A stretch of 63,868 nucleotides of DNA, counting the filler, from Reclinomonas americana ATCC 50394 (taxonomy: Eukaryota), in NCBI GenBank assembly GCA_048213135.1. It is 16 parts of 16 records of this genome, joined end to end, with 100 filler letters (N's around TTAATTAATTAA, not from the genome) between each part and the next. Parts side by side here need not be neighbours in the genome. Positions count along the whole stretch, not along the records: positions 23,191 to 27,423 come from AFZH01023592.1; positions 27,524 to 32,022 come from AFZH01023593.1; positions 32,123 to 37,382 come from AFZH01023594.1; 13 more parts are not named here. One strand, written 5' to 3'. Made by a program: the position numbers and the translations under genes. The first letter of the stretch is position 1. Each line of letters begins with the position of its first letter. The notes under the pieces are model-generated. The model made no database searches. It was given only the letters and a program-made list of their open reading frames with translations, and was not told the DNA's origin. Below, piece by piece: positions 19,882-48,655 of the stretch.

Positions 19882-22800
19882 GGAATAGGCATTCCACAGC
19901 GGCTGCACCGCTGCCTGCGTATTGAACGCAGACGCACTGACGCTGCCGGCCGGGAACGAGATGTCCACCAGCGGTGCAGTGGAGCACGGCTGACCAGCAG
20001 GAACGGCGTAATACACATCGCGCTCACTGACACCCAGACCATCGACCAAGAGCGGCTGCTGACTCGACAGAATGAATTGACTCGGCGAGATCGCACTTGT
20101 CGACACGGCCGAGAACACATTCGCAGTGGGGTCGCCAAGCTGGTAGAAGCGGCCTTGAGCACGGAACTGAATGCACACAAGGTAGGTCTGGCCAGCGGCG
20201 ATGGCAGCGGTCAGCTGCACTTGAATGCCAGCAGCCACCACGGTAGTGCTGTCAGTCGACAGTCCGCCAGAGTCATCGCAGGAGGCAGTGCCGAGTGCAT
20301 TCCGCGGAATCAGTGTCACCACGTCCGTGTTCGTGAGACCAGCGCCGGAAATTGTGAGTTGCGTGTGAATGGGAACTGGCGTGAACAGGCCCTTGGGCGA
20401 CACCGCCGACGCTCTCACAAATTGGAGAGCGTATGGACTGCCAGTAACCATGACAAACGGCGACGACATTGTCGCAGCAACGCACACCGTGCGCTGCGAC
20501 AAGATTGGCACCGCCGAGGTGTTCACAGTCACAATCAGTGCCGCCGTTGTTGTCGACGAGACGCCTAGAATTGGCACTGGATTCGTAGTTCCCAGGCACG
20601 TAGCATCTTCGACAATCTATCAAATACAAACACACACATGGGCATGAGAAGACGAATAATCTTAAACCACGAAACAACAATCTCTCTCTCTCTCTCTCTA
20701 TCTCTATCACACACACCTTCACGACCACGCGATTGGCGCCAAGCGGGAATCCAGCACCCGACACTGTCAGCGCCACCGACGACAGAGCTGGAACATTAAC
20801 TGGGGTCACCGACGCAGTTTGCACCGCGTTGACCACTTGACCGCCATTCAGCAGCAGCGCATCACCCAGCACTACGCTTCCATTCGGTCGCAGACACACC
20901 AAAAAGGCGTTGCCGAGGCCGTCATCAAAGTTGATGGTGAGCGTCACCTGCTGATTGAACGAAGTCACGGTGGGAGTACTGAAGCGCACTGGCACCAGCG
21001 GCGTTGCCGATGTGCACGTGTCGCCGGGAGCCACTGCAAACAAACGATCGTCCGACGACAGGCCGCTTCCGGAGAGCGTCAGCAGAGCCGGAGACACAAA
21101 ATTGAACAGCACCGGCTGCACGTTCGTCACCGCCACCACCGAGAAGCGAGACGAACCAGCCGTACTCAACGGGTAAAACACACCCTGGCGTCGATACTGA
21201 ATGCACACGAGGAATTGCTGGCCAGCGACAACGTTCGAAGGAATCTCGGCCACAAGCGGACCACCACTCAGAATGTTGTTGACAAGAGCAAGTACAGTGC
21301 CTCCTCGCGGATCACTGCAAGTGGCCGAGCTATCGACATTGGTGGCCACCAGTTGCAACACATCAGTCACGTCGAGACCAACACCAGTAACCGACAGGCG
21401 ACGACCCGTTGTCACTGGCGCCGGCAGCCCAACAGGCGACACCGACTGCGCATCCACAAGCAGCACAGGCGCACCGACTGGCAAGTACACATCCGACACA
21501 CTTGTTGCAACGCAAACTTGGCGAGTCGAGCCAGCCGCCGCAGAGGATGTGTTGACTACCACCACTGCCTGCGTATCAGACGTCACTGTCACCGAAGTCA
21601 CAGGCAGCGGCGATACGGATGCCGTGCACGCTGAATCGACCATCTGCAGTGGTGCGAACAAGTTAGGCGTCCGAGGCATACACACGACAAGCAAGCATAC
21701 ACAACTACAACAACAATGACATACCTTCACGAGCAGGGTGCCGGCTGGTGGGAAACCACGACCGGTAATGGTCAGCGACACGCTTGTCACTCGAGGCACA
21801 GCCACAGGTGTCAAGGAGGTGACAGTGACCGCAGCGAAAACTTGTCCACTGCCGACTGCAATGGCGGCCGGCAGGCTCGGATTGTTGCCAGGTCGCACGC
21901 ACAATCGGAACAAACGGCCAGTGGAGTCACTCATGGTCACAGTAATGGATACGAGCGTGTTGAATGTGGTCATTGCGGGCGCTGCAACCGCCGTGGAGGC
22001 CAGTGGACCAGCAGTGCACGCACTGTCCGCGGCAACCACGAAATAGGTGTCGGCTGCGCTGAGGCCAGTGCCGGTCACTTGCATGGTACGCGCGTTGGTG
22101 TCCAGAGTGTACGTCACTGGCGTTGCGGTGGGCACTGATACAGCCGAGAAGAATGCTGCCGCAGAGTTGCTGAGCGGGTACGAGAGACCCACACCTTGGA
22201 ACTGGATGCACACCAGGAAGCGCGATCCGCTGACAATGGCACTCGACAAGTCCACCACCAGCTGGTTGCTGACAACCGCAGGGTTGCGAGTGCTCACAGT
22301 GGCAGCCGCCATTGGCGAACTGCACGTCACCTGGCCAGCAGCGTCGCTGGCCACAAACTGCACTACGTCGAGACTGCTCAGTGCCACTCCCGAAATCGTG
22401 AACCGCGTGTTGGCGATCACAGGGACGACACTGCCTAGTGGCACAATGCTCTGCCCATCCACAAGCACCAAACCAGAGAGCGTTCCGACATTGACAAACA
22501 CCGGACTCGTCGGCGACGCAGCCACACAAACAGTATATGCAGTGGACGCCACAGTTGCAGCAGTGTTGACAGTGAACTGTAACGTGTTACCGTTAGGCGC
22601 TGTTACGCTCGACACACTGAGAAGCGATCCGGCGCCAGACGAGCACGAAGCGGCAGCCTGCACAAGCACCGCCGCAGTGTCGCTTCCGGGGCGGAAGCCA
22701 CTGCCGTTCACCGTAATTGTCACACTGTATCCAACAGGGATCGCCGGGGGCGTGAATCCACTCGACTTCACCGCTGACACAATTTGCTGGGAGGCCACAG

Positions 22801-23090
22801 ACAGCGCGAACGCAGCACTGGGCTCACCACCTGGTTGCACACAGAGACGGAAGAGCCATCCGTTGCCATCACTGATGGTGACGCGAACTGTGAATTGCTG
22901 ATTGAATTGCACTTGGGTCACTTGATCGACGGCGACCTGAGCAAGTGGAACAGCACTGCATAGACTGGAACTCGACACGGCAAAATACAGATCTCGGGTT
23001 GACAAGCCTGCGCCATCTACAGTCAATGTTGTCGCCGCGGCGTAGTTGTAGCTGATAGGAGTAACAGCCGTCGCGGACAAGACCGAGAGA
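19882..23090 (-). CDS. Internal part of a large extracellular protein made of ~105-aa beta-sandwich (IPT/TIG-like) domains, each with two Cys, in an ABC super-repeat
   Basis: At least 10 units with the pattern S-x-x-P...LTxxGxG[LF]...C...[LV]C[VIL]. Introns at 21644-21724 and 20617-20716. Confidence 0.8.
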
Positions 23091-23254
23091 NNNNNNNNNN
23101 NNNNNNNNNNNNNNNNNNNNNNNNNNNNNNNNNNTTAATTAATTAANNNNNNNNNNNNNNNNNNNNNNNNNNNNNNNNNNNNNNNNNNNNTATGTGTGTG
23201 TGTGTGTGTGTGCACGCATGCAATCACCACGCGCAACTGAGCATGTGCGTGCAG

Positions 23255-25052
23255 ACGTTGCTCGTGTCGGGAACTCTCGGCTGCGGCAAGACGCACTACG
23301 CGATGCATGTGGTCGCCGACGAATGGCTGTTCAAGCCGAGTGCCTCGAATGCAAAGCGCCCCGGTCGCCTGCTCTGCTATGTACACGCTGCATGCGTGCC
23401 GCAGCAAGTGTGGGCCTCCGGTGGACTTGTCACCCATTTGCTCGAGCAGAACGGATTCACGGCAGCTGATGTTGAGCTGCGAGTGCGTTCTTGTGTGGTC
23501 CCTGTTGATAGCTGACCACGGCTTGTTGTTCCTCCGCGTGCACAGTACGCCGTCTTGCGCGAGAATTACATGATACTCATCATTGTCGACGGGTACGACG
23601 AACAGAGGACCATCCCAGGCGGTACTCTGGTACAATCGTTTGCGCTTTCAGTTGCGATTGGTGGTGCCCGTTCCTGCACGTTGTCGCGTTTGCGCACCGC
23701 GCTCACCATTCGCGATAGGAATGGAACGCGTCGCTGGTGGTGTGCTGCGGAGGCGAGTATCTGGAGAATCTCAGTATCGGAGATCTGACCACCGTGTTTT
23801 CCGCTACCGGGGAGCCCGGTGGCTTCACCCAGTGTGTCCTCCTGCCGTTCTCTAACGCCCAGATCGATGACTTTCTGGCCAAGTTTCGTGTCGGGTTGGA
23901 AATGGTCTCTGTTCGCGTCGGTCCTCCGCTGATACGCAACAATGCTGTAGACTTCTTCAAACACCAGCGATCACACCGTGGCCTTTCTCCACAGTTGCCG
24001 AATTCCGTGGTCATTTTGAGCAGTGTGGTCCACTCAACGACCTCATCTCGACGGTACGTCTGTACGCATTAATTCTGTCTCTGGTGATGTCCTCATCAAC
24101 TACCTGCAGCCTCTCGCCTTGACCATGATGACATGCTGCGCACCACAAGTGGTGACATCGAGACCAGCCCTGCTGAAACAATATGTTGACTGGTGGTCTC
24201 GCCACGCGCTGACTGTCCACTCGCCGCTCAGCGCAGTTCAGTCACGCACTGTGCTACTAGTCAGTGTTCATGTTCTCTACCCTGGTGATGTTGTTCTCTG
24301 ATTATCAGATCATTGTAGGCTCTGGAAACGATTGGCGCCAGTGGGCAAACTGTGCTGGCAGCAAGTCGGCATGTGGCCGCCCAGATGCTCCTGGAGCACT
24401 CTTTAGTGTGCGACCGAAACAGCGCAGCGCTGCAGCCAGTGTTCGCTGTGCTATCCCCGGATTCACTCGGCCCAAGTCTTCGTGACGAGCTTGTTTATAC
24501 GGTTCGTCGCTTCAAGTGATGGTGTGGTGGTGCATGCTTACTTACCGCTTGGCTGCAGTCCATTTTGGTTCCTCTCGACAACGCTCACCTGGCTTACCGC
24601 CACCGTGTCATCCGCGACTACATGGCCGCTGCTGAGTGTGTGGAAACTGTGCAACGCTGGTCAGTCAACTCGATGCGACTACGTCGGAACGACGACGCGG
24701 CCATGAGCGAGGTGGGTTTCTCTCTGTCGCCAACGGCGACGATTTATTGTGCACCACCTGACACGATTTTATTATATTTTTTTGCATGCCAGATGTTGGC
24801 TTCAATACGTGAACGTGCGTGGTGCAAGCGCTTGCTGGCAGATGAGGTGCGCGTAATTTTGCTTGTGTCGTCGTTTACCACCGTCGCTCACCTGGCACAT
24901 CCCTGGTTGACAATCGATCACAGCCTGCCGTGCTGCAGCTGCTCATCGAATGGACCGCGATGGATCATGAGTTCCTCTCATCTCTCATGGCCATGCGACA
25001 CGCCGCGGAACGTTCACCTCAGCTCATCACCGCTGCCGCAAATTCACATTTC
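23255..25052 (+). other. NACHT NTPase module (several exons)
   Basis: Walker A GTLGCGKT (23270-23293), Walker B YMILIIVDGYDE, then WNASLVVCCGGEYL, PFSNAQIDDFL, LIST|PLAL, AYRHRVIRDYMAA. Confidence 0.85.
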
Positions 25053-28000
25053 GGTAATCGCTTCTTATTCGATCCCTGCTATACACCGACTGTGCCACTG
25101 AATTCATCTTACCATGGGCACACGCACAGTCCTGGGTGTTTCGGGTCATGCCTACAGACCACGTCCCACCCACCAGCCAGACGTGTGTTCTCGTGTTGTT
25201 TGTGTGTATGTGTATTGTTGCTGGTGTGCGTCTCACATTTCCCCGGTGTGCAGTTGGCTGTTCCTGTCGTGCGACATCCATTTGTCGTTGCATTGTACGA
25301 GCGACAGCCATCCACGCAACTCGAACTGCCCATGTGTGTGGGCCAAGTGTTCCGCGTGCTGAAGGAAGATGAATCAGGGTGGTGGGTGGTGCAAAACGAA
25401 ACAAGCAACAGGGGCATTGTGCCTCACAACTACATTCGACCAATCGTGCCTGTTGGTGTGTACGGTCTGTTGTGTCATGAGCCTGCGCTCCTTGTCTGTG
25501 CTCACTGTGTCTCTGTTGGTGTGAACAGCGGAGACTCAAGTGCAGGCACAATCAGTCCCGTCACCGAGGAGCAGTACTCCGCGCGCACGCTCAGACTTCC
25601 AAGAGGTATCACTCTGCGTGCTTCTTGTTCTGTCTTAACTGCATGCCAACGCGACGCGCGTCACTCGCAGCTTTTCGTTCCAGAAGAACTGACAGAGACG
25701 CACAGCATTGCTTCTTCCAAAGTTGCGCACTGTGGGCGTAGTCTTTCGGGGACTGCAACTGCTGGATACTTAACGGATGTTATTCGTGTGTACACAAAGG
25801 GCTCTGTGGATGACCCTGCAGTCGAACCGAGCGACGTGGCGGTCACAGTCAATGCATATGGACCACAGCTGAGCGACACTGCTGCAGCTGGTAGCGGCGT
25901 AGTTGCGTCGCTGTGCGATTTGTCACTTTGCGGACACCTGACAGCACTCAAATCGAGTGCGGTGTTGCAGGAGAAGCCAAGTCCAGTGCCATCCTCTCGT
26001 ACGCTGCGTGACGAAACAACGGCTACTGTGGACCGCAACGGTGCACTGCAGATGATTCGCAATGCTACCCCGATGCGAGCTTCAGTCCCGCCGTTTGTTC
26101 CACGACTAGCAATGGGTGGGTATGCGTGATTCCGTGTGGAAGCCGCTTGTTCGTGGTTTCTGATTGTTTTTGTTGTGTAGATCGATTGCATGGTGACTCC
26201 AGCGGAGATGGACATCAAGCAGTTTACCCAATATCTGAAGCGCCGTTGAGTGTTAATTCAGACGCTCAGAACGAGTCCAAGCACGGGTCTCTTCCCAAGT
26301 CAGACAACCGCGACATTTCCACACGAGACGCTCCAGCCGCCGGTGGGCGTCCCGCTGTCGCCGCCGACATATCAGCTGCTGCGCCTGCGGCAGTGACAGC
26401 ACCACCTCACAAGCCGGAGGATCTCCGGCAGTCGACCGGTCCAGCGACAGCGCCCTCAGCTGCTGCGCCTGCGGCAGTGACAGCACCACCTGTAGCTGTC
26501 GATGCAGCTGGTGCTCTGGATGCCATCCGACGTGCATCACCACCGCTACGCAGTCCGATGCCGGAGGATCTCAGGCAGTCGGCTGGTGCTCCAGCAGCGC
26601 CCTCAGCTGCAGCTCCTGCGGCAGTAACGGCACCTCTTCGCAAGCCGGAGGACCTCAGGCAGTCGACTGGTGTTCTGACAGCGCCCTCCGCTGCTGCGCC
26701 TGCAGCAGCGATAGCAACGCCTGCTGTTGTGAATGCAGCTGGCGCACTGGATGCCATTCGACGTGCATCGCCATCACCACGCAGTCCGATGCCGGAGGAC
26801 CTCAGGCATTCGACCGGTGCAGCGACAGCGCCCTCAGCTGCTGCTCCTGTGGCAGTGACAGCACCACCTGCAGTCGTCGACGCGGCTGGCGCACTGGATG
26901 CCATCCAACATGCCTCACCATCACCACGCAATCCGATGCCGGAGGACCTCAGGCATTTGACCGGTGCAGCGACAGCGCCCTCAGCTGCAGCTCACAAGCC
27001 GGAGGATCTCAGGCAGTCGACTGGTGCTCCAGCAACTCCCTCAGGTGCTGCTCCTGTGGCAGTGACACCACCACCTGCTGTTGTGGACGCAGCTGGTGCG
27101 TTGGATGCCATCCGGCGTGCCTCACCATCGCCACGCAGTCCGAAACCAGGAGACAGTGGGCACTCGACCGGTCCAGCGACAGCGCCCTCAGCTGCAGCTC
27201 CTGCGGTAGTGGCAGCACCACCTCACAAGCCGGAGGACCTCAGGCATTCGACCGACGCAGCAGCAGCGCCCTCAGCTGCTGCTCCTGCGGCAGTGACACC
27301 ACCACCTGCTGTTGTGGACGCGGCTGGTGCGCTGGATGCCATCCGACGTGCCTCACCATCTCCACGCAGTCCGAAAGCAGGAGACAGTGGGCACTCGACC
27401 GGTCCAGCGACAGCGCCCTCAGCNNNNNNNNNNNNNNNNNNNNNNNNNNNNNNNNNNNNNNNNNNNNTTAATTAATTAANNNNNNNNNNNNNNNNNNNNN
27501 NNNNNNNNNNNNNNNNNNNNNNNGGAGGATCTCAGGCAGTCGGCTGGTGCAGCAGCAGCGCCCTCAGCTGCCGCTCCTGCGGCAGTGACACCACCACCTG
27601 CTGTTGTAGATGCAGCTGGTGCCCTGGATGCCATCCGACGGGCATCGCCCCCTCCGAGGAGTCCGAAGGCACAACACCCTGCACACGACGGAGTTGCACC
27701 ACTCGTGCAACCAGCTGGTGCTGCTGCTGCCGCCGACGTTGTCGCGCGCGAGAATCACAGTACTTCGCTACATCCACCGTTGGTTGCTGTCGTTCCACCG
27801 TCAGTAGCACCTGGTGATGCAGCCACCCGCGTCCCACCACCGACTCTGCGGAGGCAACCTTCTGACCTGTCGTCGCCACGATCACCGGCATTGGGCGCCT
27901 TCAGCAGTGGCCTCGGACTTTTTGGTGGCTCGCCGGTCGAGGTATCGCATACACGTGCTTGTCTCTATGTGACTTCATTCTGACCTGCTGGTTCTTTGTC

Positions 28001-31000
28001 TCTGCTCTGCGTAGCCGCAAGTCGTCTCTCCCGGCTCAGCCAGTGGCGGGACAGCATCGCCTCGTCGCCCTACAGTTGCGGTGTTGATGCAGTGTATTCT
28101 GACACGAGACCAAGTGCGTCGTATTGCTCACTGGCTGGCAATGCATGATTATCAGCCCGGCTCACGTGCTGCACTGGCCGCCGTTGCTGCTGCCGGCCTC
28201 GGCAACGTCATCGGGCACGCTGCCGCCACTGGTTCACGCGGGAAAGGAAAGAAGCTTGTGCGGACCAAGAGCGAAGTTTCGAAGTCTGTTGGTGCGCCAT
28301 TTTGTGCTGCGACACCTAACAGTCACCTATCCATGTGTACAGGATGCGGGAACGTCGCCGCAGCCGGAGGCTGCTCGCAACACGCGCCACGCTACAACAA
28401 AATCGGTGCGTTGCGACGAACAGTTCCTCTTCCACACCACGCCTACACAAAAAACGCAAGCTTCTAACTGTGTATTGCACTCGTCTCGCAGCTTATCTAC
28501 GACACCCAGCTGCCAACAGAGATAAGGGTTTGGATGTCGTTCCGCTCCTCTAATTCGCGCTCTCATCGTACTCACTCTCGGCCCTTGCGTGCAGACGGAA
28601 AACGAAAATGGCGCCTCAAAAGCGACTTCCGAAGCGCCTGTTGCGTACATAGGACGTGAGAGAGGCTGTGTATAATGCCGGCGCTAACACCCGTTGATGC
28701 GATAGTCTTCGAGACCGTCGGCCTCCGCGTCGACCGTCACTGCCAATGCCGCGGTAAGTCTCGCAACAGCTGGACTGGGTCCAAACAATCACGTTGATTC
28801 GCTCACATGAGTGCACGCAGCCGCCGGAGTCAGCCTCCAGCGCTTCTCGAACTCACAAGCCAACAGCAGTGCGTTGTTAATACCCTACATTCGCTTCTGT
28901 GCTACTGCACCACACTAACCGCATCCTGTTTGCTGCAGTCGGTGGATGCAGACGCAGTTGCGTTATGTGAATTCACAGAACCCTTGAGAGCCGCTTGCAG
29001 CTACTTATTTCAACTGTGGCTAGGCACACCGGGATCACCGAGTGCGAGTCTCGTTCCACCTGGATGCCACACAACCCGCTGCTACCGAAGTGAGAAAAAA
29101 CTCATCTTGCGACACTGCTTCATGCTTCTGTTGCCTCATTGTTTGTGTGCCTTGTAGTCGGAGGCAGAGAAGGATGCGTTGCCAATCCCACCACCATCTA
29201 CAGTCGCCGAGGTTCGTTGCCGTCGGCATTGTTTGGCCCTGTGTGTGAACGACGACCCCCTAAAGATTGCTGCGCGCTGGTGTTTTGTGCGTAGACTGAC
29301 CGTCAGGCCGTACTCCCAACGTCAACACCAGCATTGCTCTTCCGCGATTCACCTGCGGTAAGCTCTGTCATTTTCGTTTCAGCTACTAGTGGGACAACTG
29401 TTGATCAATGCGAAATCACCCAGGCACCGATGGAGAAGGACGACGGTGGCGATGAGGACGTTTCGTGCCGCGGTTGTGCTCTGTTTTGGTCTCCCAAATG
29501 TGTTCGCTGAATATTGCTGATGCATTAGGACTCTGTTCGTGTGTACACTGATAATGACGAGGACGACGAGGCAACCTCGACTGACGACATGGTGCGTGCT
29601 GCTAGCGACGCACAACTAACTGTTCACGGCAACGAAATTAACCAGCACGTCTTGCACAGCGCTCTGAAGCCTCGTCCCGTAACAAGCACGTGGTGTCTGT
29701 GGATCCTGTTCCTGTTGCGGTTCGCTCATTGTTTCTGCTGCCCATTCGCCTACATTCATCGCTTACGATACGGCCTGTGCAGCATTCCTCCGTGTCAGCT
29801 CCTCCAAGCAGAGTGGTTTGTGTATCCTGCTGTCTGCGTGTGTGCGTGTGTGTTGGATCTTCCGGCATTCACTGCTACTACGCAGCCGTCGCCGCCACCT
29901 CGCTCCGTTCATCCGCCATCCCCGCCCGTGCGTTGTTGCAATCAGTGTGCATTTTGATTGGGTCAGTGTGTGACGTGGAAGTTGCTGAATGCAGACAACG
30001 GCGCACGGTCCTCCACCACATGTTCAAGAAACACCGATTGTGGTTGTGGAACCCGTGTCGGCTGCACGGGTTGCCGATCATGTCCCAGACAGCATCAGTG
30101 CCGTGGTCCACGAAGCGCACCACGAGCCTCAATCGACAGACGCTAACGGTACTCGACCGGAAACACCGCCTCCTGCAGTACACGCGATCAAGGAGGAGGT
30201 GGCTGCAAAAGAGAGCGCACCGCCAGAGGTGAGCGGAGTGCGTCATTTTGCTGAACGTCGCGCGTATGTTCGTCGGTATGCTCAACATGCAACTGTGTAG
30301 CCGGTGGTGATGTTGGCTCCTGGCGATGTTGTCGCCGTGTACGAAGGAGACCGACTCGACCGAGACGCTTCACAGCCGGAGGCCCTCGGCGGTGCACTTG
30401 TGGTGCTTGATATGCTCGCAAACAGTATGTGGATTCGCACGCACCGCCTGTGCTGACCGATGGATTGCTCACCGCCGAGTGTACCGCAGGTGGACGACGG
30501 GTTCTCGTTGGTGCGTCTGATGGCGAGCTGGTTGATCGAGTTCGAGTGCGCCATCACGGTCCAGCCGCCAATTTGATGGGGTGCTTGGTTACTGCGGAGG
30601 GGTGCACGGAAGGAATCGGTCGTGTGTACGAGCCCGCCCACCATGTGCACCCACAACTCGTGTGCGGTCGCATCATTCACGTACACGCCAGCGACGAGGA
30701 CGAGTTGCCAGCCCGTGCGGTACGTGGCCGGAAGGGCTTCTCCTTCCTGGCCGCCACGTCGTTGTTCACATCGAGTATTTCTACGTATGTGTGGCGCAGG
30801 AATTGGAGCGTGTGTCGATAGTGTCCGCAATTGCGATGCTCAGTCTGGAGCCACCACCCGGTGCGTCAGCTTGGACCACGCGTGTGCATGTTCATGTATT
30901 TTGTGTGTGTGTGTTTTGCTTCATGCTGACATTGCCAGTGTAGCGCCGTTCTCTCGCGATTGCGTGGTGGGAGCGTATCCGTTCCCACCTCGCTGGCTCT

Positions 31001-33494
31001 ATCCGAGCCACGGAGCCGCTCTGAGTGAGGTCTTGGCCGTGCTTCGAGAGGAACTGCGCAGTTGCATGTCCAGTCACTTTCGTGTTGGTCCTTGCGTACC
31101 GTTGACCTCACCGTGTGCACGCACACCCTGCAGCACCGTCTCCTGGATGCTTTGTTGTTATTGAGGGTCCCGAAGGCGTGGGCAAGAGCAGTTGTGCTGC
31201 GGCATTGCAGGTGGCGTGTCATCTGCGATCCGCTGATCTGAGTCTCGTAACCTCACCACTGCCGGTACTCAGGTGGCACTCTCCGGACCACCATTTAATG
31301 TCCTTGGACCCGTCACCAGCGTGGATCTGACCGATGCACTGACACACGAGTCGGCAGAGTCCATGTCGCTGTCGACTGTTGTCGCACATCTGCATGGACT
31401 GTACGATCGTACGGTCTCCAGTCATGTCATGTCAAGAGATGCCGATTTGGCCTCGCGTATCGACGCTCTTGACGACGAATTGTACGCATTGCTACCGAAT
31501 CGACGCAAGTTGCTCCTCCTGGAGAATGTGACGGACGTGGCGCAACTGGCGTCGTTTCTGCCCCGTGTCCACCTTTCGCAAGGTAAGCTGCATGCGTTAT
31601 GCATGTGTTGCGTGCGATACTCACATGGATGTCTGCCGTTGCGTAGCACAATCATACGGCCCGGTGGTTGTGGTCACCACCAGGCAGATGCTCGGTGAGC
31701 AGGTGCGACTGATGTTCCCTTTGATGCGCACGGTCGTGTTGCCGCTCGGCTTTCTGGACGAGGGCGATGTTTCGTTTTTCTTGGAGAAGACTGGCTCCTC
31801 CGAGGCCATGCGAGCAGCAGCCGATGTGTGCATCAACAGATCGGCGCTGGAATTGGCCTTGGCCAACTGGTAGACTCTCCTCCAGTCGTCGTGTGTGTGC
31901 ATCCACGGCGCGACAACAACTTACGGGTACTTTTTGCGTGCAGGACGTTGCAGAGAGCGCCGAATGTTACAGACGTTCGAGCGCAAGTCATGATGGGTCG
32001 AGATGCAACCAGTATTCTCGACNNNNNNNNNNNNNNNNNNNNNNNNNNNNNNNNNNNNNNNNNNNNTTAATTAATTAANNNNNNNNNNNNNNNNNNNNNN
32101 NNNNNNNNNNNNNNNNNNNNNNCTGTTGCAAGCAGCGACATCTCACCTCTGTTGCATTGCTCCACGTCTGCAGCCTGGCATCGTTGGCAGACATGCCCAG
32201 TGTTTCATTCGCTATGCTGGTGGAACTGTTGCCGCTGGTTCCCGACCCGCGACACGGTGGTACCCTGCCATTGGGCACCAGCGCTGCGCTCGCCAGCAAG
32301 GGCTTGATCGACGGAAGAGCGCCGGTCGCCTCTTCACGTGTGGATTCGAGTGCGTTGACCGAGGCCCTGACGCCACTTGTGCAACTGGGGCTGGTGCAGT
32401 GCACGGCCATGGAGAGTGCCGCCGGTGTTTGCTTGGCATCTCCCCGGCACGGCCGCGTCACGCGACATTCGACGTACACGTTGCATCGCATGTGGAGTGT
32501 GCATCTGCAGCAGCGTCTGCGACGACTGTGCCTGAGTGTGCGTGCATCGTGTTGCCGCGTGTTTGTTCGATGGGTCGAACAACTCGCATCACCGTTGCCG
32601 TGGGTTGAGCACTCTCGGTTGCTGCCACATCTGGACTTTGTGTGGCGGCAGTTCGAGGTCGGCGAGCTGCAATCGGCAGTGTGTCGTACGTTGAGCACTG
32701 ATGAGTTGCAGCGCTTTGTGGAGGCGTTTTGTTGCCTGGCCGAGGATGTGCCGCCTGTGTACGAAGCGCACGCTGCGCGCTTCATCCGCCTTCTGCACAC
32801 TGAGGAGCGCACACGGAGAAATGCGGCCACTCCACCCACCGGACTGTTTGGCAGCCAGCTCCCACGTCTGTACAGACTAGCACGCATGGTTCCTCCGCCA
32901 CAGCCAACAACGACAGCGGCTGCCGGTGGGAGTGGTGGTGGTGGTGGTGGTGGCCATGGGGGTGGCGTGTTGAGCGGCACATCACCATCGACACGGCACA
33001 CCACTACTCAGGCGCTGCTGAACCAAGTGGGTGCCACGGGGAGCACGCTGTCGGGCGCCCCCATTGTTCCTTCACACAGTGCGCTACTGTATGTGGAGCA
33101 GCAGCAACAGCAGCAGGCGGCAGCAGCGGCACAGCGCGGAAGCGCATCGCCGACGCCAACTGCGCCACCGCCGCTCGAGCTCTCCACAGCATCGGCGTTG
33201 GACACCTCGGCCGAGTTGGCGCGATGCGAACTGTACGCCAGTGCATTGCAGCACGCCAAAGAGGTGATGGCGGAGAGTCGCTTGCTGGCGAATGATCTCA
33301 ACCACGTCTCCTTCGGCGTGTCGGTGCTGGAGTCTGTGGTCGCTGGACAAATGGCACAAGCCCTCGCATTGTTGGCTGGCTACTTGGAGGTACTGCCCTC
33401 GCACTTCCATGGCGGCGCGCCCCCTGTCGGTGTCCGTTTCCTTCGTCAACTGTACGAGGCGCTGGCTCGCACTCACCAGCGAAAAAAACTGTAA
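23255..33494 (+). CDS. Multi-exon STAND protein: NACHT - SH3 - Pro/Ala repeats - NB-ARC-like NTPase - winged helix - helical C-terminus (5' incomplete; spans two linkers)
   Basis: First module: GTLGCGKT and IIVDGYDE. Then an SH3 domain. Second module: GPEGVGKS, LLLLENV, VVVTTRQ, YTLHR. The same repeat units flank linker 27424, and winged-helix sequence continues after linker 32023. Stop TAA at 33492-33494, AATAAA at 33512. Confidence 0.72.
25280..25445 (+). other. SH3 domain
   Basis: VVALYE...ELPMCVGQVFRVLKEDESGWWVVQNETSNRGIVPHNYI carries the ALY, EL, GWW and GxxPxNY signatures. Confidence 0.9.
26361..27670 (+). repeat. Coding tandem repeat: modules PEDLR[QH]STG..APSAAAPAAVT and AAGALDAIRRASPSPRSP
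   Basis: Six visible GALDAI copies (~26514, 26741, 26888, 27096, 27326, 27618). The frame stays open, and the assembly breaks inside the array. Confidence 0.9.
31134..32520 (+). other. Second STAND module (NB-ARC-like NTPase plus winged helix)
   Basis: FVVIEGPEGVGKS (P-loop 31166-31189), RKLLLLENVTDVAQLASFLP, VVVVTTRQ, LGFLDEGD, ALTPLVQLGLVQ...YTLHRMW. Confidence 0.78.
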
Positions 33495-33938
33495 TACCGC
33501 GTCAAGCATGTAATAAAGTCGTGTGCTGTGTAATGAACATGCTGTTACACATGATAGAAACCCCACTTCGGGTTGGGGACTGTACTTGTGGACCGAGCAA
33601 CAAAGTTACATACCACCATTCGTACTCGAACACTGCATGTTGTGTCTAGCCAAAGAAGGTCAGGTCAGATCCAACGAAAAGTAGCCGAACTTTTCCGGCT
33701 GGCGCACCTGCGCAGCGAAATCAGCGATTTTGTGCTCGACAATTTTCACTGTCGAGTTGTACAAGTCCACCGACTGTTGTATTAAGGTCTACAAAGCTTG
33801 GACCTGTGGTTCAGTAGGTACATGAACATGGGCAGCCTGCCGGCTGGCGCTGGAAACGCACCCGACAAGCGCTGCAGAAACCTGCCGGATCTCGCGTGTC
33901 CGACGGGTCGACCGATTTTTATCGAATCATCGTGCATC

Positions 33939-34504
33939 ATGGGCGCCGGCAAGAAGAAGAAGGAGGTGTGTTGACGATCTTGTTGTGTGCTGCATGTGGC
34001 GGATTGCGTCTCAGATGCATCACTACGCCTTTGGCGTTCTCCCTGTCGCGTTCTGTGTCGTGTGTGTCGTGTGTGTTTTGATGTGGCATGACCACCCTTC
34101 TCCTCGTTCTCCTCCGCCTGTCTCACGTACCACAACAGGGCGAGACTCCGGGTGCACCAGCGCCAGCGGCTCCCGTGGGATCGTCGTCTCACCGCTCAGC
34201 GGCGGGACCGTCGTCGGAGCCTGCGCTGTTCACGGCGCGCGATGCCGTCGAGTGCATTGTCAAGGCGTTCCTGACGGGTCTTCTCACTGGTGCGGGATCG
34301 GTGTTGGGTGCCACGGTGATGCGATGGGCTCTGGCCGACAAGTTTAGCACTGCGTCGCCCCCTGCGTCGCCGCCAGCATCACCACCGGCCTCGCCTCCGC
34401 CCTCACCTCGTGGCGGCGAATCCTCCGCAGCACCGCCACCGTCATCCTCATCGTCCTCGTCAACTACCACCACCACCACACGGACTGCCGCTGCACCCAA
34501 GTGA
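33939..34504 (+). CDS. Small two-exon protein with one Gly-rich hydrophobic segment and a Pro/Ser/Thr tail
   Basis: MGAGKKKKE, intron 33966-34138, then GETPG...IVKAFLTGLLTGAGSVLGATVMRW. An in-frame upstream ATG near 33822 is also possible. Confidence 0.55.
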
Positions 34505-34602
34505 CAACCGCACGCAGTGTGGCTGGCCACCACCGGCGCTGACTGCAATGAACAATCACAACAAAAAACACGCGCCTGATGATGACGGATCTCTTTTCTG
34601 TT

Positions 34603-37600
34603 TTACACTTCTGTGCGCCGTGGCGATGGAGGTAGTGGATGGAATGGTGAGGCAGGCGAGTGCACGAGTGGAGGAGCCGATGGATGCGGTTGGGCAGTGG
34701 CGACCGGGTCAGTGGTCGACGTGGGCGAGTGCGGTCGCGATGACTGCGTGCTGCTGTGGATGCTGCTGCCGCCGGAGCCGCCAGCAGCGCGCTCACGACG
34801 CAGTTTTTGGAGTTTTCCCATGCGTGCCACCAGCTGCGCCCGCGAGGCTGTCGGGTCTGACGAGCCGGGCGACAAGTCGGCGCCCACCAGCGACGCCTGT
34901 GTTGTTTGTATTCAGACGACGGAAGCTCACGCTTCGATGTCCATCATCACGTACCGCCAGTGCCGCTGCCGGCGCCACAAGTCGCGGCGACGACAGAGGA
35001 GCTGAGAATGTGCTACCGGTGCCACCGAGGCCGAGACCGCCACCGCCGTTCTCTGCGGCGTTGCGCAGCGCTGCTGCTTTCCGATCCAACTCCATTGCTC
35101 GTTCAGTCTGCAATCTTTCGCGTCTCTCCACCGCCTCCTCGCGGCGAGCGAGCTGAGGCACGAGGCAGGTGGTCGACGACGATCAGGCACGTTGCGCACG
35201 AGGGGTGGAGCGACGAGTGGTACATGCACGTAACTGCCTCGGTTTTCACCACCAGGTCGTTTTTCGATATCTCCAGCTGGTTGGTCAACAGCTCCACTTC
35301 GCGTTGTCGTCGTGTCAACTCCGCAAAGACAACCTCACGCTCGGAGAGTACCTGTCGCTGCCGCATGATTTCCTTCTCTTGCTCACGCAGCTGGAGAGCA
35401 GTAACAACATGAGTAGGCAGGCATCCGGGGAAAAACGCGCACACAAACATCAAGCCCACCGTGGTTGCAAGCTGCTCCAACTCGGTGCTCTGTTTGTTCA
35501 GCTGCGCAGAGCGCGCGTCAAGCTGCTGCTTGGCGACTGCTGAGCGGCTTTCTGCTGATTGCACGTCGGCTAGTCGTTGGCGCAACGCTGCTTCTTGTCG
35601 CTCCAGTGCATGTGCACGCGCGTCGTGCAGTTCCCACGACGTAGAGACGTCCTTTTCTGCCTCTGCCACCTGCAAGTTGAACTGAGAAGACGTGGTGGTG
35701 GTGGTGGTGGTAGTGGGGGTGGGGTAAAAACCGACCTTGGCAGACCGAATGTCGAGTGCCGCCGCGGCATGTCGTAGCGTCTCCTCGCGCTGCTCCAGTT
35801 CCACTTGACGAGACTTCACCTCGGTCTCCATCGTTGACGCCTGTGTGTGTGTGTGTGACGGGAATAAATCAGCCCTTGCATACTTCGGCTCGCGGCAAGT
35901 CAGCACGCAGTACCGCTTGCATCCGCGTGAGCACGTCCTGATGGTCGGATCCCAGCGAATGTGCCAGCGGCCGTACCTGTCGCTCACGCTCCGCAACACG
36001 CTTTTCACGCCCTTCAACCTGCAGCAGACGAGAGAGTATACAGGTTGAGGAATGAGTGAGAGGCAATGGGGGCGCCGACATCACGTCTTCGTACCTCCAG
36101 CATTCGTTGCGTGGTGGACTTCTCGGTCAGCTCGCTCGCGTACTCCCGTGCGCGAACAGTGGCCTCCCGCTCGGCCACCACTGCTTCTCGTTGCTGGCAC
36201 TCACTCTCTCGCTTCTCGACTTGGTGGAGACGCGCCTGTAGTGCGGTGAGCAGCTGGTCGGCGTGCTCCTTTTGTTGCGCCACATGGCGGCCACGCTTGG
36301 AGAGCTCGCCGAGAATGTCTTCCACTGCGCGCACTGCGTCCGACTGCCCAATTCACCACACAGTCAACGCGCGACGACTCTTACACAGTGCCCCATGCGA
36401 TCAACGACAAGCACACGGAACTCGAGTTTGGGCCGAGTACCGAGGAGACACGGGATCTGGCGGTCGGCTGGTCGGTGTAGCCAGTGCGCCCGTCGTTGGC
36501 GGCACTGGTGCGGAAACAAACAAGAAAACGACGTTAACAGAGACAACAGGGAGCATGACGCCACACATGCACATGCACGAGGCGCAACTGTTGGCCTGTG
36601 CCGCCAAGCCACCAGTGTCCGAGTACGAGAGGAGCGACTCCAGCGTTGAGCGAGTACCACGCAGTTCGCGCTCCATGGCTTGCACCTGAACGCACACACA
36701 CCCGCACACACCGTGTGAGCCGCATGTACGACATGCCACGCACAAGCAAGCACATACCGTGGCCTGCAGGGTCACTACGTCTGTTTCAAAGTTGTCGAGC
36801 TCCTGCTTCCTGGCGTTGAGTTCGTCCTCAGCCACACGCACGGCACGCTCCCGTTGCTCCACGCGCACGGCGGTCTCCGTCAACTCGGCCAGCTGCTTCT
36901 CCAGCTGCTCGTGCAACTCTCGCAGCATGTCATACTCCATCGAAGCGACGCCACTGGATCGCGACAGTTCTGCATCACGCGGCATGCGCGTGCGAAGGTC
37001 GATGATATCGCGGATCCACACAGGCGGCTCCGCTTCGGAAGGATCTCTTGGCGCCGACGGCACCGCTGCTGCTGCTGCTGCCGCCGCCGCGGCAGTCGCA
37101 TCCAACCGCAGTGGAGGCACGCGCACAGCCGCAATCTGTGAAGACGGCAGCAACTCATCGCCGAGGACTGCACAAAAGTGAGCGCGGTGATCAACACAGA
37201 ATCAGCAAGGCTGCTCAGCCGACACACACGAACCCGACGGTGGCCGACTGAACGCCAGCTCCGCAGGCGACACTCGTCCAGACGATCCACCAGAGAGCGG
37301 TACTATGGCGGGCGACTGTTGCTGTGCCGCTGCAGCATTGGACAAGCCCGCCGGCTGACCACCACTCACGGTGAGGCGCGGANNNNNNNNNNNNNNNNNN
37401 NNNNNNNNNNNNNNNNNNNNNNNNNNTTAATTAATTAANNNNNNNNNNNNNNNNNNNNNNNNNNNNNNNNNNNNNNNNNNNNAATTGCTGTTGTTGTTGT
37501 TGTTGCAATCGCAGGGCGCGCTGCTGGTGATCGTAATGCCTCCGCTCTCGTGGCGACACCAACACTGTCGGCATCTTCGAGGAGGCGGTGGCGGACGGTA

Positions 37601-37721: not shown

Positions 37722-37922
37722 GCAAGCACAGAGATACACACACAGAGAGAGAAAGAGACAAGGAAACAGACACACACTAAGAGAGGAGCGTAGGTGCACA
37801 CCCACGCGCGCGGCACAGAGTGTGTGCGTGGGCGTTGTATGTGTGTGTCAGCGAGTGCGCGTGCGGTCCACCAATCGACGAAAGAGGGACCTCTCCTTCT
37901 ATTCCATCGTCATGAGAGCAGC

Positions 37923-39138
37923 ATGAGGTTGCACTTGTTCTCGCTTCTCCTCCTGCTTGTGCACCTGTGTGTGCTGAGTGCAGGGTCGCCTGTTCAGCAG
38001 CGGATTGCAGGCGGCACAGCGGTCGCTGAGAACACAGAGTTCGTGTCGTATGTGGCCTTTGAGGTGTGCACGCTCTCTCCTTGTTCACCTCTCTCTCCGT
38101 CTCTCCCACTGACGCTCGTTTCCTCACAGCGTGTTGGCACACAACGGATCCGTTGCGGTGGTGTACTGATTGCACCTGATGCGGTATTGACAGCCGCACA
38201 CTGCTTCTCCAACGAGGCAGTCGCCGGTGCGCCGGGCTCGCTTAGTGCCTACACTGCGCGCCTGCAGTCCATGAACAACACGAGCACGCTGCGCGAGTTC
38301 ACTCCACATCCAGACAGCTCTTTCGACATTGGTGTGTGTGTCTTTGATAATGTTGCTGTTGGTGCTGAGACGCGTTGCTGACAGCCTTTTGTGCAGCCAT
38401 TGTGCGTTTGACAGAGTCTCTGGTACCACCAGAGCAAGACGCGCATCTGGCCAACTTGAATGCTCCCGGTACTCTGCTGCCTCCACGTCTCGACGACATG
38501 CACAGTGACGCGGTGAATGTGGTGGCGATTGGGCGCGGCTTCACCAGCGATCCTGTTGCGTCTCCATGTGCCTCTTGCATCTCACTGTGCGTGCACCTTG
38601 CGCTCACTGAGTGCTGCGCGCAGGATTTGCCCGGGAGCGAGCCCTCGTTGCATTTGCTGCGGCTCGACCACTTGCACTTGCTTCCGGTGGCTGGTTGCAG
38701 CTACCAAGAGGTGCGTGTATGTGTATGGATGTACGTGCGTCTAACACGCTGATTCACATGTCGCAGTACTACTTTTGTGTGGCCATGACCGGTGGCCACT
38801 CGACGTGCTCGGGCGACAGCGGAGGTCCGCTGTGGGCGCAGCAAGCTGGGCGCGCCGACGTAGTCCTCGGTGTTGCCTCTCGTGCCGACACATCGTGCGG
38901 TGTTCGAGACGGGGTGGCCATCTATACGCGCGTGGACGACGTGGCCGAGTGGATCGCCGCGTCGGTGCCAACTTCGCGTTTCCGACACTGGCTGACTGGC
39001 GAACAGTGGGCGCCACTCCGACCGCAAGAATCGACGCCGATGCTGCCGCGATGGCTGGCACTCACGCTAGTTGTTGTTCTCTCGGCTGTGCCATTCGCGG
39101 CCGTGGTCGCGCTGATCCGCGCGGTGAGAAGAAAGTAA
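37923..39138 (+). CDS. S1A (trypsin/chymotrypsin-fold) serine protease with signal peptide and C-terminal TM anchor; 5 exons
   Basis: Signal peptide, R-IAGG activation site, CGGVLI..VLTAAHC, FDI|AIVRL, TCSGDSGGPL, YTRV..WI, and a hydrophobic C-terminus followed by RRK. Confidence 0.95.
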
Positions 39139-40574: not shown

Positions 40575-43500
40575 TTACGTGCGAAGCATGGTGTCGCCGC
40601 CGAGGCGTTCGCGCAGGAGATCCAGTGTGGCACCGGCCACCATGCGACACTCGTCTTGTGCATCGTCCGTGGTACGCAGACGGAGCGCCACGACGAGTGG
40701 CTCCAGCAGGTGATCCCAGTCTTGGGCGAGAAGGGCACGAGGTTTTGCATCCACGGCGCAGTGTAGCGCAGTGAGGCCTGCCAGTCGCACAGAGACGCGC
40801 TTATCGGCAAGCAAGAACAAGGCAAACTGCAGTCACACGCCGGTGAGAACACAGTCGACCACCAACACACACATCTCACTGGCCGCGCGCACCTCGGCCA
40901 ACTGATCGCACATGACGGACACGTTCGGTGCGTTGATGCAGCAGGCAACAAAGCATGTAAGCAAGCTGACAAGACGACTCAGCATGAGTCCGTCGTCGTC
41001 AAACGCCACGCTCCGATGATTGCTCTGATTCAGGAACTTGAAGAAGAGCACTGGCGCAATGCCTGCAAACTGATTGCGGAACACGGCCACCTCCTGGGGT
41101 CGGTGGACGCGGCGCATCGTCGTACGTCCGGTACTCGGTGCGCGCACTGCGCAGCGGCACCCACGTTACGAAGACGAGTAAAAGAAAATGATGGAGGAAT
41201 GCGCGACGCACATGCTGCGGAAACATGCTTCGGCTGCTCGACTCGCGTGCTGGCCAGTGCGGTGGCCGCCTCGGCCAGCACGGCGACAATGTCGAGCCTG
41301 TCTCCAGCATGCACCGACCGGGTGAAGAACTCGTCGGCCAGTAACCTACGAATGCACAACCGGGACCACGATGAGCACACGATCGCACACCAGCAGGTCA
41401 CACAGAGTGACAACTTACGCAACACCATAACACTGGCTGGGGCGGCAATGGCCAGTTCGACAAGAGCAGCGTGCTTGAGGGACGCAAACTCTTCGATGCC
41501 GAGATCCTCACGCACATGAATCAGGCGACGTGCGACACTGACGCCCATTTCCACGGCCTGATGTGTGTGTGCGTGGATAATATCAGGCAGCGCTTCCAGT
41601 GCCTGCTGCAGGCGATCGGCATCCTTGGTCTCTGCGAGCNNNNNNNNNNNNNNNNNNNNNNNNNNNNNNNNNNNNNNNNNNNNTTAATTAATTAANNNNN
41701 NNNNNNNNNNNNNNNNNNNNNNNNNNNNNNNNNNNNNNNGCCTCCAGTGCATCGCCCAGGTATCTAAGGCGACACAAGTGAATGTGAGCGACTCAACGCG
41801 GGCACAGGATGCGCGGGGGAGAAGCGGTCACGTACCGAAGTGGTGCAAGCCGACGCCTCGGATTGAGTGGATCCTCCGGCTCGCCGGTCACAGTCTCCGA
41901 CAAGGGCAGTGCATACGCCTCCAAGCTGTCCGTGTCGTCGTCATCATCGTCGTCACCACCATCGTCGGCACGCCTCCTACCCTCCTCAGCATCATCATCA
42001 TCATCATCTTCGCCATCATCATCATCGTCGTCATCGTCATCATCGTCGTCGTCATCATCGAACGGCTGCACCGAGTGGGGATCGTAGAGAGCGGACGGGT
42101 CGGCCAGCAAATCATCCAGTCTCGAAGCAAGGGGCTTGCGGACCCGGGCTACCGGCGGCGCAGCGGCGACCTCTGCCACCTGCACGGCAGCTGGCGACGG
42201 AGCTCGTGCAGTCGCATCTTTCTGCAGCAGAGCGAGTGTCGCATGAAACTCCTGCCACGCACTGTCGCCATCGGTCGCACCGCCGGAGGCGTGAAACTGC
42301 AGTGGCTGGGACGGGTTGACAAGCACGGAAAACAGCTCCGCAACAGCCATGGCATCTCCTCGACACGCCGTCAACGGGCTCTGCAGTCGAATGTGCACTC
42401 CCTCCAAAATGCCCTGCAGCGCACCGCCGACAGCATCCAGTTGCTTCCGCGTGATGCGAGTAAGCAGTGCACGGAGCAGGTGTACAAGTTCTGCAAGGCA
42501 CGTGGGGTGAATCGCAGAGCGCGGACGAAAGCCTCAAATTTTCATGCGCGTGCTTACGTTGTGAGGCGGTCGCAGAAGCGTGGCGAAGGAACTGAGCGTC
42601 GGCCCATGTTCGACAGATATTCGCCAATGCCGTCGACAGCAAGTCGCCGCCGTCCGACTCTGGTGCGAACAGGAGGACGTGGGTGAGGAACGCCCGCTGT
42701 TCGACCACGGGCAGCGAGCGATGTGCGACAAGGCGACTGGCCAGCAGGTCGCTAACAACGGAGCTACTGCGCGCGAGCGAACGCAGAAACCGCGGCGCCA
42801 CTGCATGCACGCACACACGAGGAAAGTCAGTGATGCGGAAGGAAAAAACGAGTTGCAGTCGCTCGCAACGATTGCATCGGACGTGCGGCGGGTGAGGTGA
42901 GTCACTGCGCACGCAGACCACTGTGTGAGAGAGTACACACGATCACACGGAAACACGCGCAGCACACGAACGAAAGCACACATACCGATGACTCGCGAGT
43001 GTCAGCAGTTGCACGACAAAGCTCTCCAGCGCCGCCTCACGCATCCGCACCACTCCGGCACACACAGTGAGGGGGTGTTCCAGTGTCGGAAGGAGTGCCA
43101 TGCACACTCTAGCAACTTCAGTGGCCGCCCCACGTAAGCATAGGCGACTAAGAAGCAGCACGACTTGCACTGCACGGTCACTCTCGTCTGCGGTGTCCAA
43201 CAGGAGGAGACACTGGCGAGCGACACGCTCGAACAGCTGAGCTTCGCTGAGAGGCTCCGAGATGGCATGACGCACGGCTACCGCGCGAACTCGATCGACC
43301 ACGCCCAACAGCGCCGACACAACCGGGTGATCGCCACCACCCACCCACAATTCCTGATCCAACAGCAGATGAGAGTGCGGCACCAGGCCGGGTAGTGGCA
43401 CAGCAACAACTGCAGCGTCTTCGTACCTCTCGTTCCACCAGCGCCTGTACCACCGCGCGTGTGTCCATCAGCTTGAGCAAGCAGGCGGCCAGGAATGCAC

Positions 43501-47026: not shown

Positions 47027-47032
47027 TGCTCC

Positions 47033-48636: not shown

Positions 48637-48655
48637 TGAACGGAGTAGCTGGAGC

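Follow-up and report, generated by a model that had tools for sequence, protein, structure and literature searches.

On the + strand of positions 23255-33494 of a 63,868-nt stretch of joined Reclinomonas americana ATCC 50394 contigs (GCA_048213135.1; hereafter, the window), we find a NACHT-like STAND NTPase and a second, different one that is NB-ARC-like, with an SH3 domain in between. To our knowledge, STAND/NLR proteins are thought to carry one nucleotide switch per chain, with receptor cooperation taking place between separate proteins. We put it slightly below an even chance that the NACHT and NB-ARC-like modules reside on one fused protein. The draft assembly is fragmented, and the locus spans three of its contigs (23191-27423, 27524-32022 and 32123-37382).

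Two STAND modules and an SH3 domain

The NACHT-type NTPase and winged-helix region (23255..24711, + strand) consists of seven hand-curated exons, i.e. 23255-23482 with the P-loop, 23546-23629 with Walker B, 23719-23887, 23995-24053, 24110-24259, 24319-24501 and 24559-24711. Because the contig start (23191) falls within an intron, the gene lacks its 5' end, and the N-terminal effector part is not in the assembly. Three further short + strand exons (24793-24846, 24924-25053 and 25130-25182), which have an open frame in the spliced model and lie on the gene-finder path, lead to the SH3 exon. Spliced by hand, 23255..25455 comprises 11 exons and 10 GT-AG introns of 56-107 nt and encodes 488 aa without an in-frame stop, as against 12 stops in each other frame. 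With an HMM built from 28 PF05729-positive proteins of bacteria, this model obtains 31.0 bits (E 7.2e-9), and shuffled sequences reach at most 3.6 bits (n=1000). In hhalign, spliced 23255-25455 aligns with NACHT references at 97.8% (E 7.8e-13, 281 columns), the top shuffle being 9.3% (n=45), and thus the NACHT motif series that a preliminary description had placed from 23255 onward is real, with one substitution. Walker A, LLVSGTLGCGKT, aligns with l~v~G~~GsGKS and has the G-x4-GK[ST] pattern after a beta strand, while Walker B, LIIVDGYDE, aligns with llLlDGlDE and fits hhhhD[GAS]hDE, the signature for NACHT in the STAND literature. In the helical and winged-helix region, PLALTMM and AYRHRVIRDYMAAA both align with the references, and the winged-helix motif is H-x-x-x-x-DYMAAA. 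The sensor-1 Arg is replaced, with VVCCGGE opposite VVvTsR in an otherwise colinear alignment; the module may therefore bind nucleotide yet hydrolyse it poorly. When single exons were scanned in Pfam, the P-loop exon scored 11.8-11.9 bits (E 0.2; PF05729 gathering score 26.7), while five of the seven module exons had no match and one had a chance match to STAS_2 (E 0.15). Overall, the module resembles the NACHT clade (PF05729: animal NLRs, fungal NACHT NLRs and bacterial NACHT proteins) across the 281 aligned columns and in its P-loop, D-G-x-D-E Walker B, PLxL helix and winged-helix H....(E/D)YxAA motif. By contrast, what follows downstream is an SH3 domain and Pro/Ala repeats rather than LRR, WD40, ankyrin or TPR.

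The SH3 exon (25254..25455, +) exceeds the Pfam cut-offs for the SH3 families (PF00018 / PF14604), with 44.8 bits for SH3_9 (cut-off 30, E 1.2e-11) and 35.7 bits for SH3_1 (cut-off 22.9), which bears out the earlier assignment. In PDB, it matches 217 sequences at E<=0.001, with p47phox on top (7.8e-9). The likeness to the SH3 domains of p47phox and Src-family kinases such as Fyn (E 8e-9 to 1e-7 across 53-54 residues) includes the ALY, WW and P-x-NY signature residues; unlike in those proteins, the domain is here embedded in a STAND protein.

Downstream of the SH3 exon, a Ser/Ala/Thr-rich segment (25534..26115, +) with ambiguous splice sites lies within the 427-aa open frame of the SH3 domain, and many splice combinations keep this frame open. 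It is followed by a single 1243-nt exon (26181..27423, +) that is open to the contig end and translates in frame to 413 aa (Pro 16%, Ala 27%); within it, 26372-27423 is made up of tandem units of 231/147/207 nt. The next contig begins with a last repeat unit (27524-27671), 80-86% identical to the units in 26372-27423 and on the same strand, and a unique Pro/Ala-rich tail completes this part (27524..27941, +). Thus, the long Pro/Ala repeat linker, with the same repeats on either side of 27424, is as first described, and we did not find the repeat in the window beyond these two contigs. If the intron at 27942-28014 is retained, the frame ends at TGA 27981-27983. The repeats next to the SH3 domain contain 10 PxxP motifs. 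They have neither an [RK]xxPxxP (class I) nor a PxxPx[RK] (class II) motif, and thus give no indication that the SH3 domain binds its own repeats.

The second NTPase is preceded by a region of ~170 aa (30301..31024, +) without a family match; the pre-NTPase exon probably extends to ~31060-31090, which would add the helix SEVLAVLREELR right before the P-loop. The NB-ARC-like NTPase itself (31134..32022, +) consists of four exons, 31134-31210 (P-loop GPEGVGKS), 31273-31582 (Walker B LLLLENV), 31647-31869 (VVVVTTR and the GLPL-like ALELAL) and 31944-32022. In hhalign, the module aligns with a set of 21 PF00931-positive proteins from bacteria at 96.7% (E 3.3e-10); the 104 columns take in Walker B, VVVVTTR and the helix that resembles GLPL, and the top shuffle is 1.0% (n=45). 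NACHT follows with 91.1% and AAA_16 with 68%, the latter match, like that of an AAA_16 reference HMM, being confined to the P-loop. A local home-made NB-ARC HMM gives the spliced module 6.4 bits. The P-loop, VVIEGPEGVGKSS, has the form expected for NB-ARC. In the Pfam scan of single exons, its exon matches AAA_16 (E 0.0056) and nSTAND3 (E 0.011), each below its own cut-off, and no exon matches PF00931 (gathering score 23.5 bits) at E<=10. LLLLENV aligns with LLV~Dn, with E for the first D and the N shared with the bacterial reference consensus; VVVVTTR aligns with iLiTsR as an RNBS-B/sensor-1 "TTR" motif; and NRSALELALAN aligns with gg~PLal~la, with the G-x-P missing. Thus, the NB-ARC-like Walker B and TTR noted earlier on the + strand do align, and the top alignment is to PF00931-positive proteins, ahead of NACHT and AAA_16. 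A non-STAND kinase, raised at the outset as a possible refutation, is rejected for the second P-loop on this NB-ARC match together with the shuffles, and so are other non-STAND folds. The module can be aligned with the NB-ARC/AP-ATPase clade (PF00931: Apaf-1, CED-4 and plant R proteins, and also fungal and bacterial NB-ARC-TPR proteins) at Walker B, the RNBS-B-like VVVVTTR and the GLPL-like helix, but differs from it in having E-N rather than D-D in Walker B, ~95 aa from the P-loop to Walker B, and ALELAL in place of GLPLA.

The third contig opens with a 456-aa open frame (32124..33494, +; TAA at 33492-33494) comprising a weak winged-helix-like start (to ..YTLHRMW) and, after it, helices on both sides of a low-complexity stretch. 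YTLHRMW holds a candidate MHD-type histidine. On its own, this frame reaches 2.1% against NB-ARC; when it is appended to the second module, the NB-ARC alignment continues colinearly and has 218 columns instead of 104 (template positions 79-309). By features, the look-alikes of 32124-33491 are DUF7779/TPR clusters (0.90-0.92), as a lead only, and an AlphaFold2 prediction of the 456 aa made without an alignment has a pLDDT of 46.5, too low for a fold search. No TPR, WD40, LRR or other repeat family is found in Pfam at E<=1 in the + strand frames of 23192-33491, and hence, at this threshold, the recognisable C-terminal repeat array of the canonical tripartite NLR is absent here. Frame 32124-33491 has no match among 1.84 billion cluster representatives and none among longer proteins, and the SH3-containing frame 24846-26126 has none among longer proteins. 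An OSCA-like exon of a neighbouring gene (12797-13432) also has no match in a homologue search, and Rfam and tRNA scans of the whole window found nothing.

One fused protein or two products

If the two modules belong to one protein, the three contigs would be neighbours and 23255-33494 would be one intron-rich + strand transcription unit, the spliced message of which would encode a single protein of at least ~2,470 aa with its N-terminus missing. The predicted order is the NACHT nucleotide-binding oligomerisation module (NOD) with its winged helix, SH3, a Pro/Ala-rich tandem-repeat tract of at least 550 aa, a low-complexity micro-exon linker of ~430 aa, the ~170-aa region, the NB-ARC-like NOD and a helical, possibly TPR-like C-terminus.

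The part of the locus that bears on this reading is the linker (27942..30300, +), with ~14 short exons and ~15 intron-like elements. Gene-finder scores for the + and - strands are 153.8 vs 19.8 in contig 23191-27423 and 144.1 vs 0 in contig 27524-32022, where one stop-free path runs throughout. Using splice models trained without contig 27524-32022, we count 9-10 strong intron-like elements on the + strand of 27942-29994 and 0-3 on the - strand; the + strand density is 4.4-4.9 per kb in the linker vs 4.9-5.9 per kb in the NACHT-SH3 region. When the linker exons are shuffled, the best score for a single ORF falls from 102.9 to 60.7 +/- 8.0 (0/100 reach the real value), and with random deletions of 0-2 nt per linker exon it falls to 88.5 +/- 5.9 (1/150 reach it); in the NACHT region, as positive control for this jitter, the values are 148.0 vs 128.2 +/- 6.5 (0/150). 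Exon by exon, frameshifts have no effect in 28015-28287 and 29529-29927, and the score rises in 28939-29089, which counts against the fused reading. The lowest GC in 150-nt windows of the linker is 0.507, and the sole measurable intergenic stretch (windows 33425-33799) has 0.453-0.513. Thus, intron density, frame jitter and composition favor one continuous + strand transcription unit. ORF continuity as such was discarded as a test for a single gene: it is weak evidence because many alternative splice choices hold a frame open, and dozens of splice combinations remain open here.

Alternatively, with a probability that we place a little below that of the fusion, the locus yields two products, a NACHT-SH3-repeat protein ending in 27,981-30,300 and a separate small-N-domain/NB-ARC-like/helical protein starting at ATG 30310 or ATG 29989. 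These would stem from a compact gene pair or from a dicistronic or intron-retaining transcript and would represent a tandem NLR-like pair rather than a fusion. Candidate stops for the first gene are TGA 29297-29299 and TAG 30298-30300. Three to five linker junctions require weak splice sites, and five of the 15 introns on the single-ORF path have such sites (28645-28713, 28967-29023, 29053-29157, 29460-29528 and 30229-30300). When the locally strongest splice sites are chained, this natural path meets TGA 29297-29299; parsing by splice signal alone is error-prone even within the NACHT region. The intron at 30229-30300 is 72 nt long, divisible by three and has the in-frame TAG at its end, its acceptor is weak (score 0.7) and the usual CTNAC branch is missing; if it is retained, the TAG is followed 9 nt later by the in-frame ATG 30310, which opens the exon MLAPGDVVAVYEGD. 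ATG 29989 is the first codon following a stop. The best two-gene parse, with TAG 30298-30300 and ATG 30310, scores 147.0 vs 144.7 for the single parse, and in an independent model the values are 107.1 vs 102.9; two-gene and single-gene parses are, therefore, tied, at most ~4 nats apart. Each half is laid out like a complete STAND protein, the DUF7779/TPR-like C-terminus counting as a lead, and fusions read over same-strand neighbor genes are often artefacts.

However, nothing between the modules looks intergenic: in the 12 top-scoring two-gene parses, the coding regions lie 9-317 nt apart, compared to 444 nt for the only stop-to-ATG distance that could be measured in the window. Moreover, the intron-like elements persist at coding-region density, frame-dependent coding signal extends through linker exons as far as 30228, and the stretch between the modules has no low-GC window. 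On the + strand, AATAAA is absent from 23191-33494, and the first copy downstream lies at 33512..33517, 18 nt past the final stop. In 27990-31100, where a stop or polyA site was to count against one protein, there are candidate stops and no + strand AATAAA. The preliminary claim of one protein stands for the domains and their common strand; the single polypeptide is a possible reading, which two-gene parses equal in score.

Order of the contigs

The window joins 16 contigs of 1.2-12.3 kb by identical 100-nt spacers, and the apparent gaps at 23091, 27424 and 32023 are such spacers (N44+TTAATTAATTAA+N44; 27424..27523 and 32023..32122 within the locus) rather than genomic gaps. Because the spacers are fixed and Bosea-like bacterial contigs (44814-56211) are included in the same window, contigs that adjoin here need not adjoin in the genome, and the order that we propose across 27424 and 32023 would follow from content only. 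The repeats, earlier taken to tie the two halves together, are part of this content and speak for adjacency. The end of the first contig and the start of the second both lie inside the tandem repeat, a classic place for misjoins in assemblies, and the contig ends do not overlap, their best match (86.5% identity) being to an internal repeat unit. That the contigs are not all adjacent in this order and the two modules come from different loci, for instance because two paralogous repeat-bearing genes were collapsed or mis-ordered, is nevertheless unlikely, as two successive junctions are biologically sensible and in the same orientation, the repeat carries on across 27424 and occurs nowhere else in the window, and an open frame without a start colinearly continues the truncated NB-ARC across 32023.

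A possible two-switch device

Based on the fused reading, we tentatively suggest a single polypeptide with NACHT followed by the NB-ARC-like module, separated by SH3 and >1,000 disordered Pro/Ala-rich residues, in which retention of the 72-nt intron acts as a switch. In this model, two oligomerisation switches that are driven by nucleotide and come from different clades would be held in one chain by a long flexible tether, and activation or assembly of one module would raise the local concentration of the other, while the SH3 domain would dock the complex to a partner with a proline motif. Retention of the intron at 30229-30300 would give the NACHT-SH3 protein alone, and splicing could therefore decide whether the short or the fused product is made. 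A covalent two-NOD signaling device that combines the fused chain with a NACHT-only product is a possibility to which we give somewhat less than even weight. The device would amount to a sensor/helper NLR pair in covalent form; the sensor-helper fusion, a decoy role of SH3 and a function in innate immunity, all raised in the preliminary description, are putative.

In plants, the known sensor/helper NLR pairs are encoded by separate genes, often head to head; the likeness to the present proposal is that two STAND receptors would act together, covalently in our case. Wheat WTN1 is a plant NLR with tandem NB-ARC domains (bioRxiv 10.1101/2024.08.30.610185). Such NLRs resemble the single-ORF model in having two nucleotide-binding oligomerisation modules in one polypeptide. 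However, in those NLRs both modules are NB-ARC and lie close together upstream of LRR, whereas here they belong to two clades and would lie ~1,700 aa apart, separated by SH3 and a disordered stretch of repeats. A NACHT and NB-ARC dual-NOD chain with SH3 was not found in the literature searched, and searches with pieces of the locus found no homologue with this architecture.

If the locus comprises two genes, NACHT and NB-ARC would still form a closely linked pair, with an unusual tail of SH3 and repeats. If one chain carries both modules, it would show that serial wiring of the NACHT and NB-ARC clades is possible and would offer a tractable model for inter-NOD communication. It would also widen the range of NLR-like architectures in a eukaryotic lineage that is poorly sampled, as the searches with pieces of the locus and of a neighbouring gene found no relative.

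Window composition and gene models

The window consists of 16 contigs of 1,199-12,338 nt and is not one continuous molecule. Because the 15 100-nt spacers that separate the contigs are identical and fixed (44 N, TTAATTAATTAA, 44 N), what looks like a gap at 23091, 27424 or 32023 is a break between contigs whose real width the spacer does not give, and adjacency across it is argued from content. Five contigs (44814-56211) are bacterial. Their HAMP/HisKA/HATPase_c kinase shares 95% identity with Bosea loci, and they also encode DUF411, DUF305, an IS256-type transposase (E 2.3e-124) and a large serine recombinase. The five apparently derive from a contaminant or co-cultured bacterium whose DNA entered the eukaryotic draft assembly. 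In the remaining contigs, which are eukaryotic and rich in introns, the GC content is ~0.52-0.61.

Genes were modelled with a self-built Viterbi gene-finder that combines codon log-odds, donor and acceptor matrices, a branch-point bonus and an intron-length prior, and that was self-trained on the eukaryotic contigs of the window. A second, independent model was trained without contig 27524-32022 and, therefore, tests of that contig with this model are not circular. The predicted introns have a median length of 70 nt, a CTNAC branch motif near the acceptor and an unusual donor consensus across the eukaryotic contigs, G|GT[G/T/A][C/T]G[T/C], with T at +3 in 23 and G at +5 in 65 of 92 introns. 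For instance, the GTTCGT donor at 24502 is confirmed by a conserved NACHT motif that is unbroken across the junction. The + strand was favored in contig 23191-27423 (153.8 vs 19.8 for the - strand) and in contig 27524-32022 (144.1 vs 0).

Elsewhere in the window, we observed an OSCA/CSC1-type channel exon (12797-13432, -; RSN1_7TM, E 5e-8), for which a word-based search found no relative, trypsin-like protease exons (37794-39135, +; E 3e-8 and 5e-10) and a TELO2-like protein exon (41796-42533, -; E 1.2e-8). Long CT/CA-type microsatellites and low-complexity tracts at 3760-4783, 7487-8444, 10931-12199, 60026-61231 and 62614-63714 generate spurious long ORFs on both strands. On the - strand, opposite to the NACHT gene, a 938-aa open frame (19882-23090) is still open where its contig meets the spacer on the right; it has no Pfam match, contains by eye several similar ~300-aa units (..G-x-G-L-S-x-x-D-x-x-F-x-V..) and could encode a large surface protein built of repeats.

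Two NTPase modules, an SH3 domain and Pro/Ala repeats

Contig 23191-27423 begins within an intron, with position 23255 as the first base of the P-loop exon; thus, the N-terminus of the gene lies outside the window. After hand curation, the first NTPase (module 1) through the SH3 domain comprises 11 exons (23255..25455) separated by 10 GT-AG introns of 56-107 nt, and the spliced exons encode 488 aa with no in-frame stops, while each other frame has 12. Single module 1 exons gave just an 11.9-bit P-loop match to Pfam. Local profiles were made from bacterial reference proteins chosen by Pfam family, i.e. PF05729 (47 of 401 genomes matched; 30 loci fetched, 28 used), PF00931 (21 of 401 genomes; 25 loci fetched, 21 used after exclusion of two loci matching both families and two without a usable frame) and PF13191 (135 of 301 genomes; 30 loci fetched). 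Module 1 scored 31.0 bits against the NACHT HMM in hmmsearch (E 7.2e-9; best of 1000 shuffles, 3.6 bits) and 97.8% over 281 columns against NACHT in hhalign (E 7.8e-13; best of 45 shuffles, 9.3%) vs 85% against NB-ARC. The NACHT alignment takes in the P-loop, LIIVDGYDE, PLALTMM and the winged-helix H..IRDYMAAA, with the sensor-1 Arg replaced by Gly.

The SH3 exon (25254-25455) is above the Pfam cut-off (SH3_9, E 1.2e-11) and matched 217 PDB sequences at E<=0.001, the best of them p47phox (7.8e-9). It is followed by one strong intron and a 1243-nt exon (26181-27423) that encodes 16% Pro and 27% Ala and contains tandem units of 231/147/207 nt reaching the contig end. The first unit of contig 27524-32022 is 80-86% identical to these units and on the same strand, and no further copy of the repeat is present anywhere in the window beyond these two contigs.

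The second NTPase (module 2) is encoded by four exons (31134-32022) with GPEGVGKS, LLLLENV, VVVVTTR and ..CINRSALELALAN. In hhalign, NB-ARC was its best reference family (96.7%, E 3.3e-10; the 104 aligned columns extend from Walker B as far as the GLPL-like helix), ahead of NACHT (91.1%) and AAA_16 (68%, P-loop only), while the best of 45 shuffles reached 1.0%. Because the home-made NB-ARC HMM gave just 6.4 bits (shuffles <=4.1), we label module 2 as NB-ARC-like and not as a proven member of NB-ARC. The 456-aa frame that opens contig 32123-37382 has no homologue in sequence searches and no matching Pfam family, and its language-model look-alikes, DUF7779/TPR clusters at 0.90-0.92, serve as a lead only. 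When this frame is added to module 2, the NB-ARC alignment stays colinear and grows to 218 columns. The frame closes with TAA (33492-33494), and 18 nt downstream lies an AATAAA. The next + strand gene apparently begins at ATG 33939 (MGAGKKKKE.., a possible N-myristoylation start), and the 444 nt between stop 33494 and this ATG is the sole stop-to-start distance measurable in the window.

Thus, the NACHT motif series, the SH3 domain, the Pro/Ala repeats on both sides of 27424 and the second P-loop with NB-ARC-like motifs, all listed in a preliminary description of this locus, are confirmed.

One protein or two products

The same description joined these elements into one protein spanning 23255..33494, and this fusion is unproven. 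We give one protein a chance just short of even. The gene-finder traced a stop-free path through the entire contig 27524-32022. In the linker between the repeats and module 2 (27942-29994), the independent model found 9-10 strong intron-like elements on the + strand vs 0-3 on the - strand, a + strand density equal to that of the NACHT region. The best single-ORF score, 102.9 for the real linker, fell to 60.7 +/- 8.0 when the linker exons were shuffled (0 of 100 reached 102.9), and jittering their frames gave 88.5 +/- 5.9 (1 of 150); the corresponding NACHT control fell from 148.0 to 128.2 +/- 6.5 (0 of 150). No 150-nt linker window matched the AT-richness of a known intergenic stretch. All these observations, and the absence of a + strand AATAAA from the linker, are points for one unit.

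Two products are a serious possibility, to which we assign a chance somewhat below even. The best two-gene parse, with TAG 30298-30300 followed by ATG 30310, scores 147.0 vs 144.7 for the single parse (107.1 vs 102.9 with the independent model), and eleven further boundaries lie between +0.5 and -3.3 relative to the single parse. Moreover, of the 15 linker introns that the single path uses, 5 are weak, frameshifts are cost-free or favorable in three linker exon groups, frames stay open under many splice combinations, and chaining the locally strongest splice sites leads to TGA 29297-29299. All 12 best two-gene boundaries leave just 9-317 nt between the coding regions, making a classical two-promoter layout awkward; a dicistronic or intron-retention layout is not made awkward by these distances. 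The candidate intron 30229-30300 has 72 nt, is divisible by three, ends in the in-frame TAG and is followed 9 nt later by the in-frame ATG. Its splicing or retention would decide between a continued and a truncated reading frame. An assembly artefact, in which the contigs only appear to belong together, is unlikely.

Relation to known NLRs

In the parts of the literature returned by full-text searches, neither a NACHT-SH3 protein nor one that holds NACHT and NB-ARC as separate modules was found. Among fungal NLRs, 55 of 4613 are scored as "both", but these represent one ambiguous domain (PMC12258605). Plant NLRs with tandem NB-ARC are known, e.g. WTN1 (10.1101/2024.08.30.610185). Such plant proteins carry two NB-ARC modules, whereas the locus described here combines NACHT with an NB-ARC-like module and is a candidate for one protein. 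If the two modules are fused, this protein would be a variant of the STAND/NLR kind not met before.
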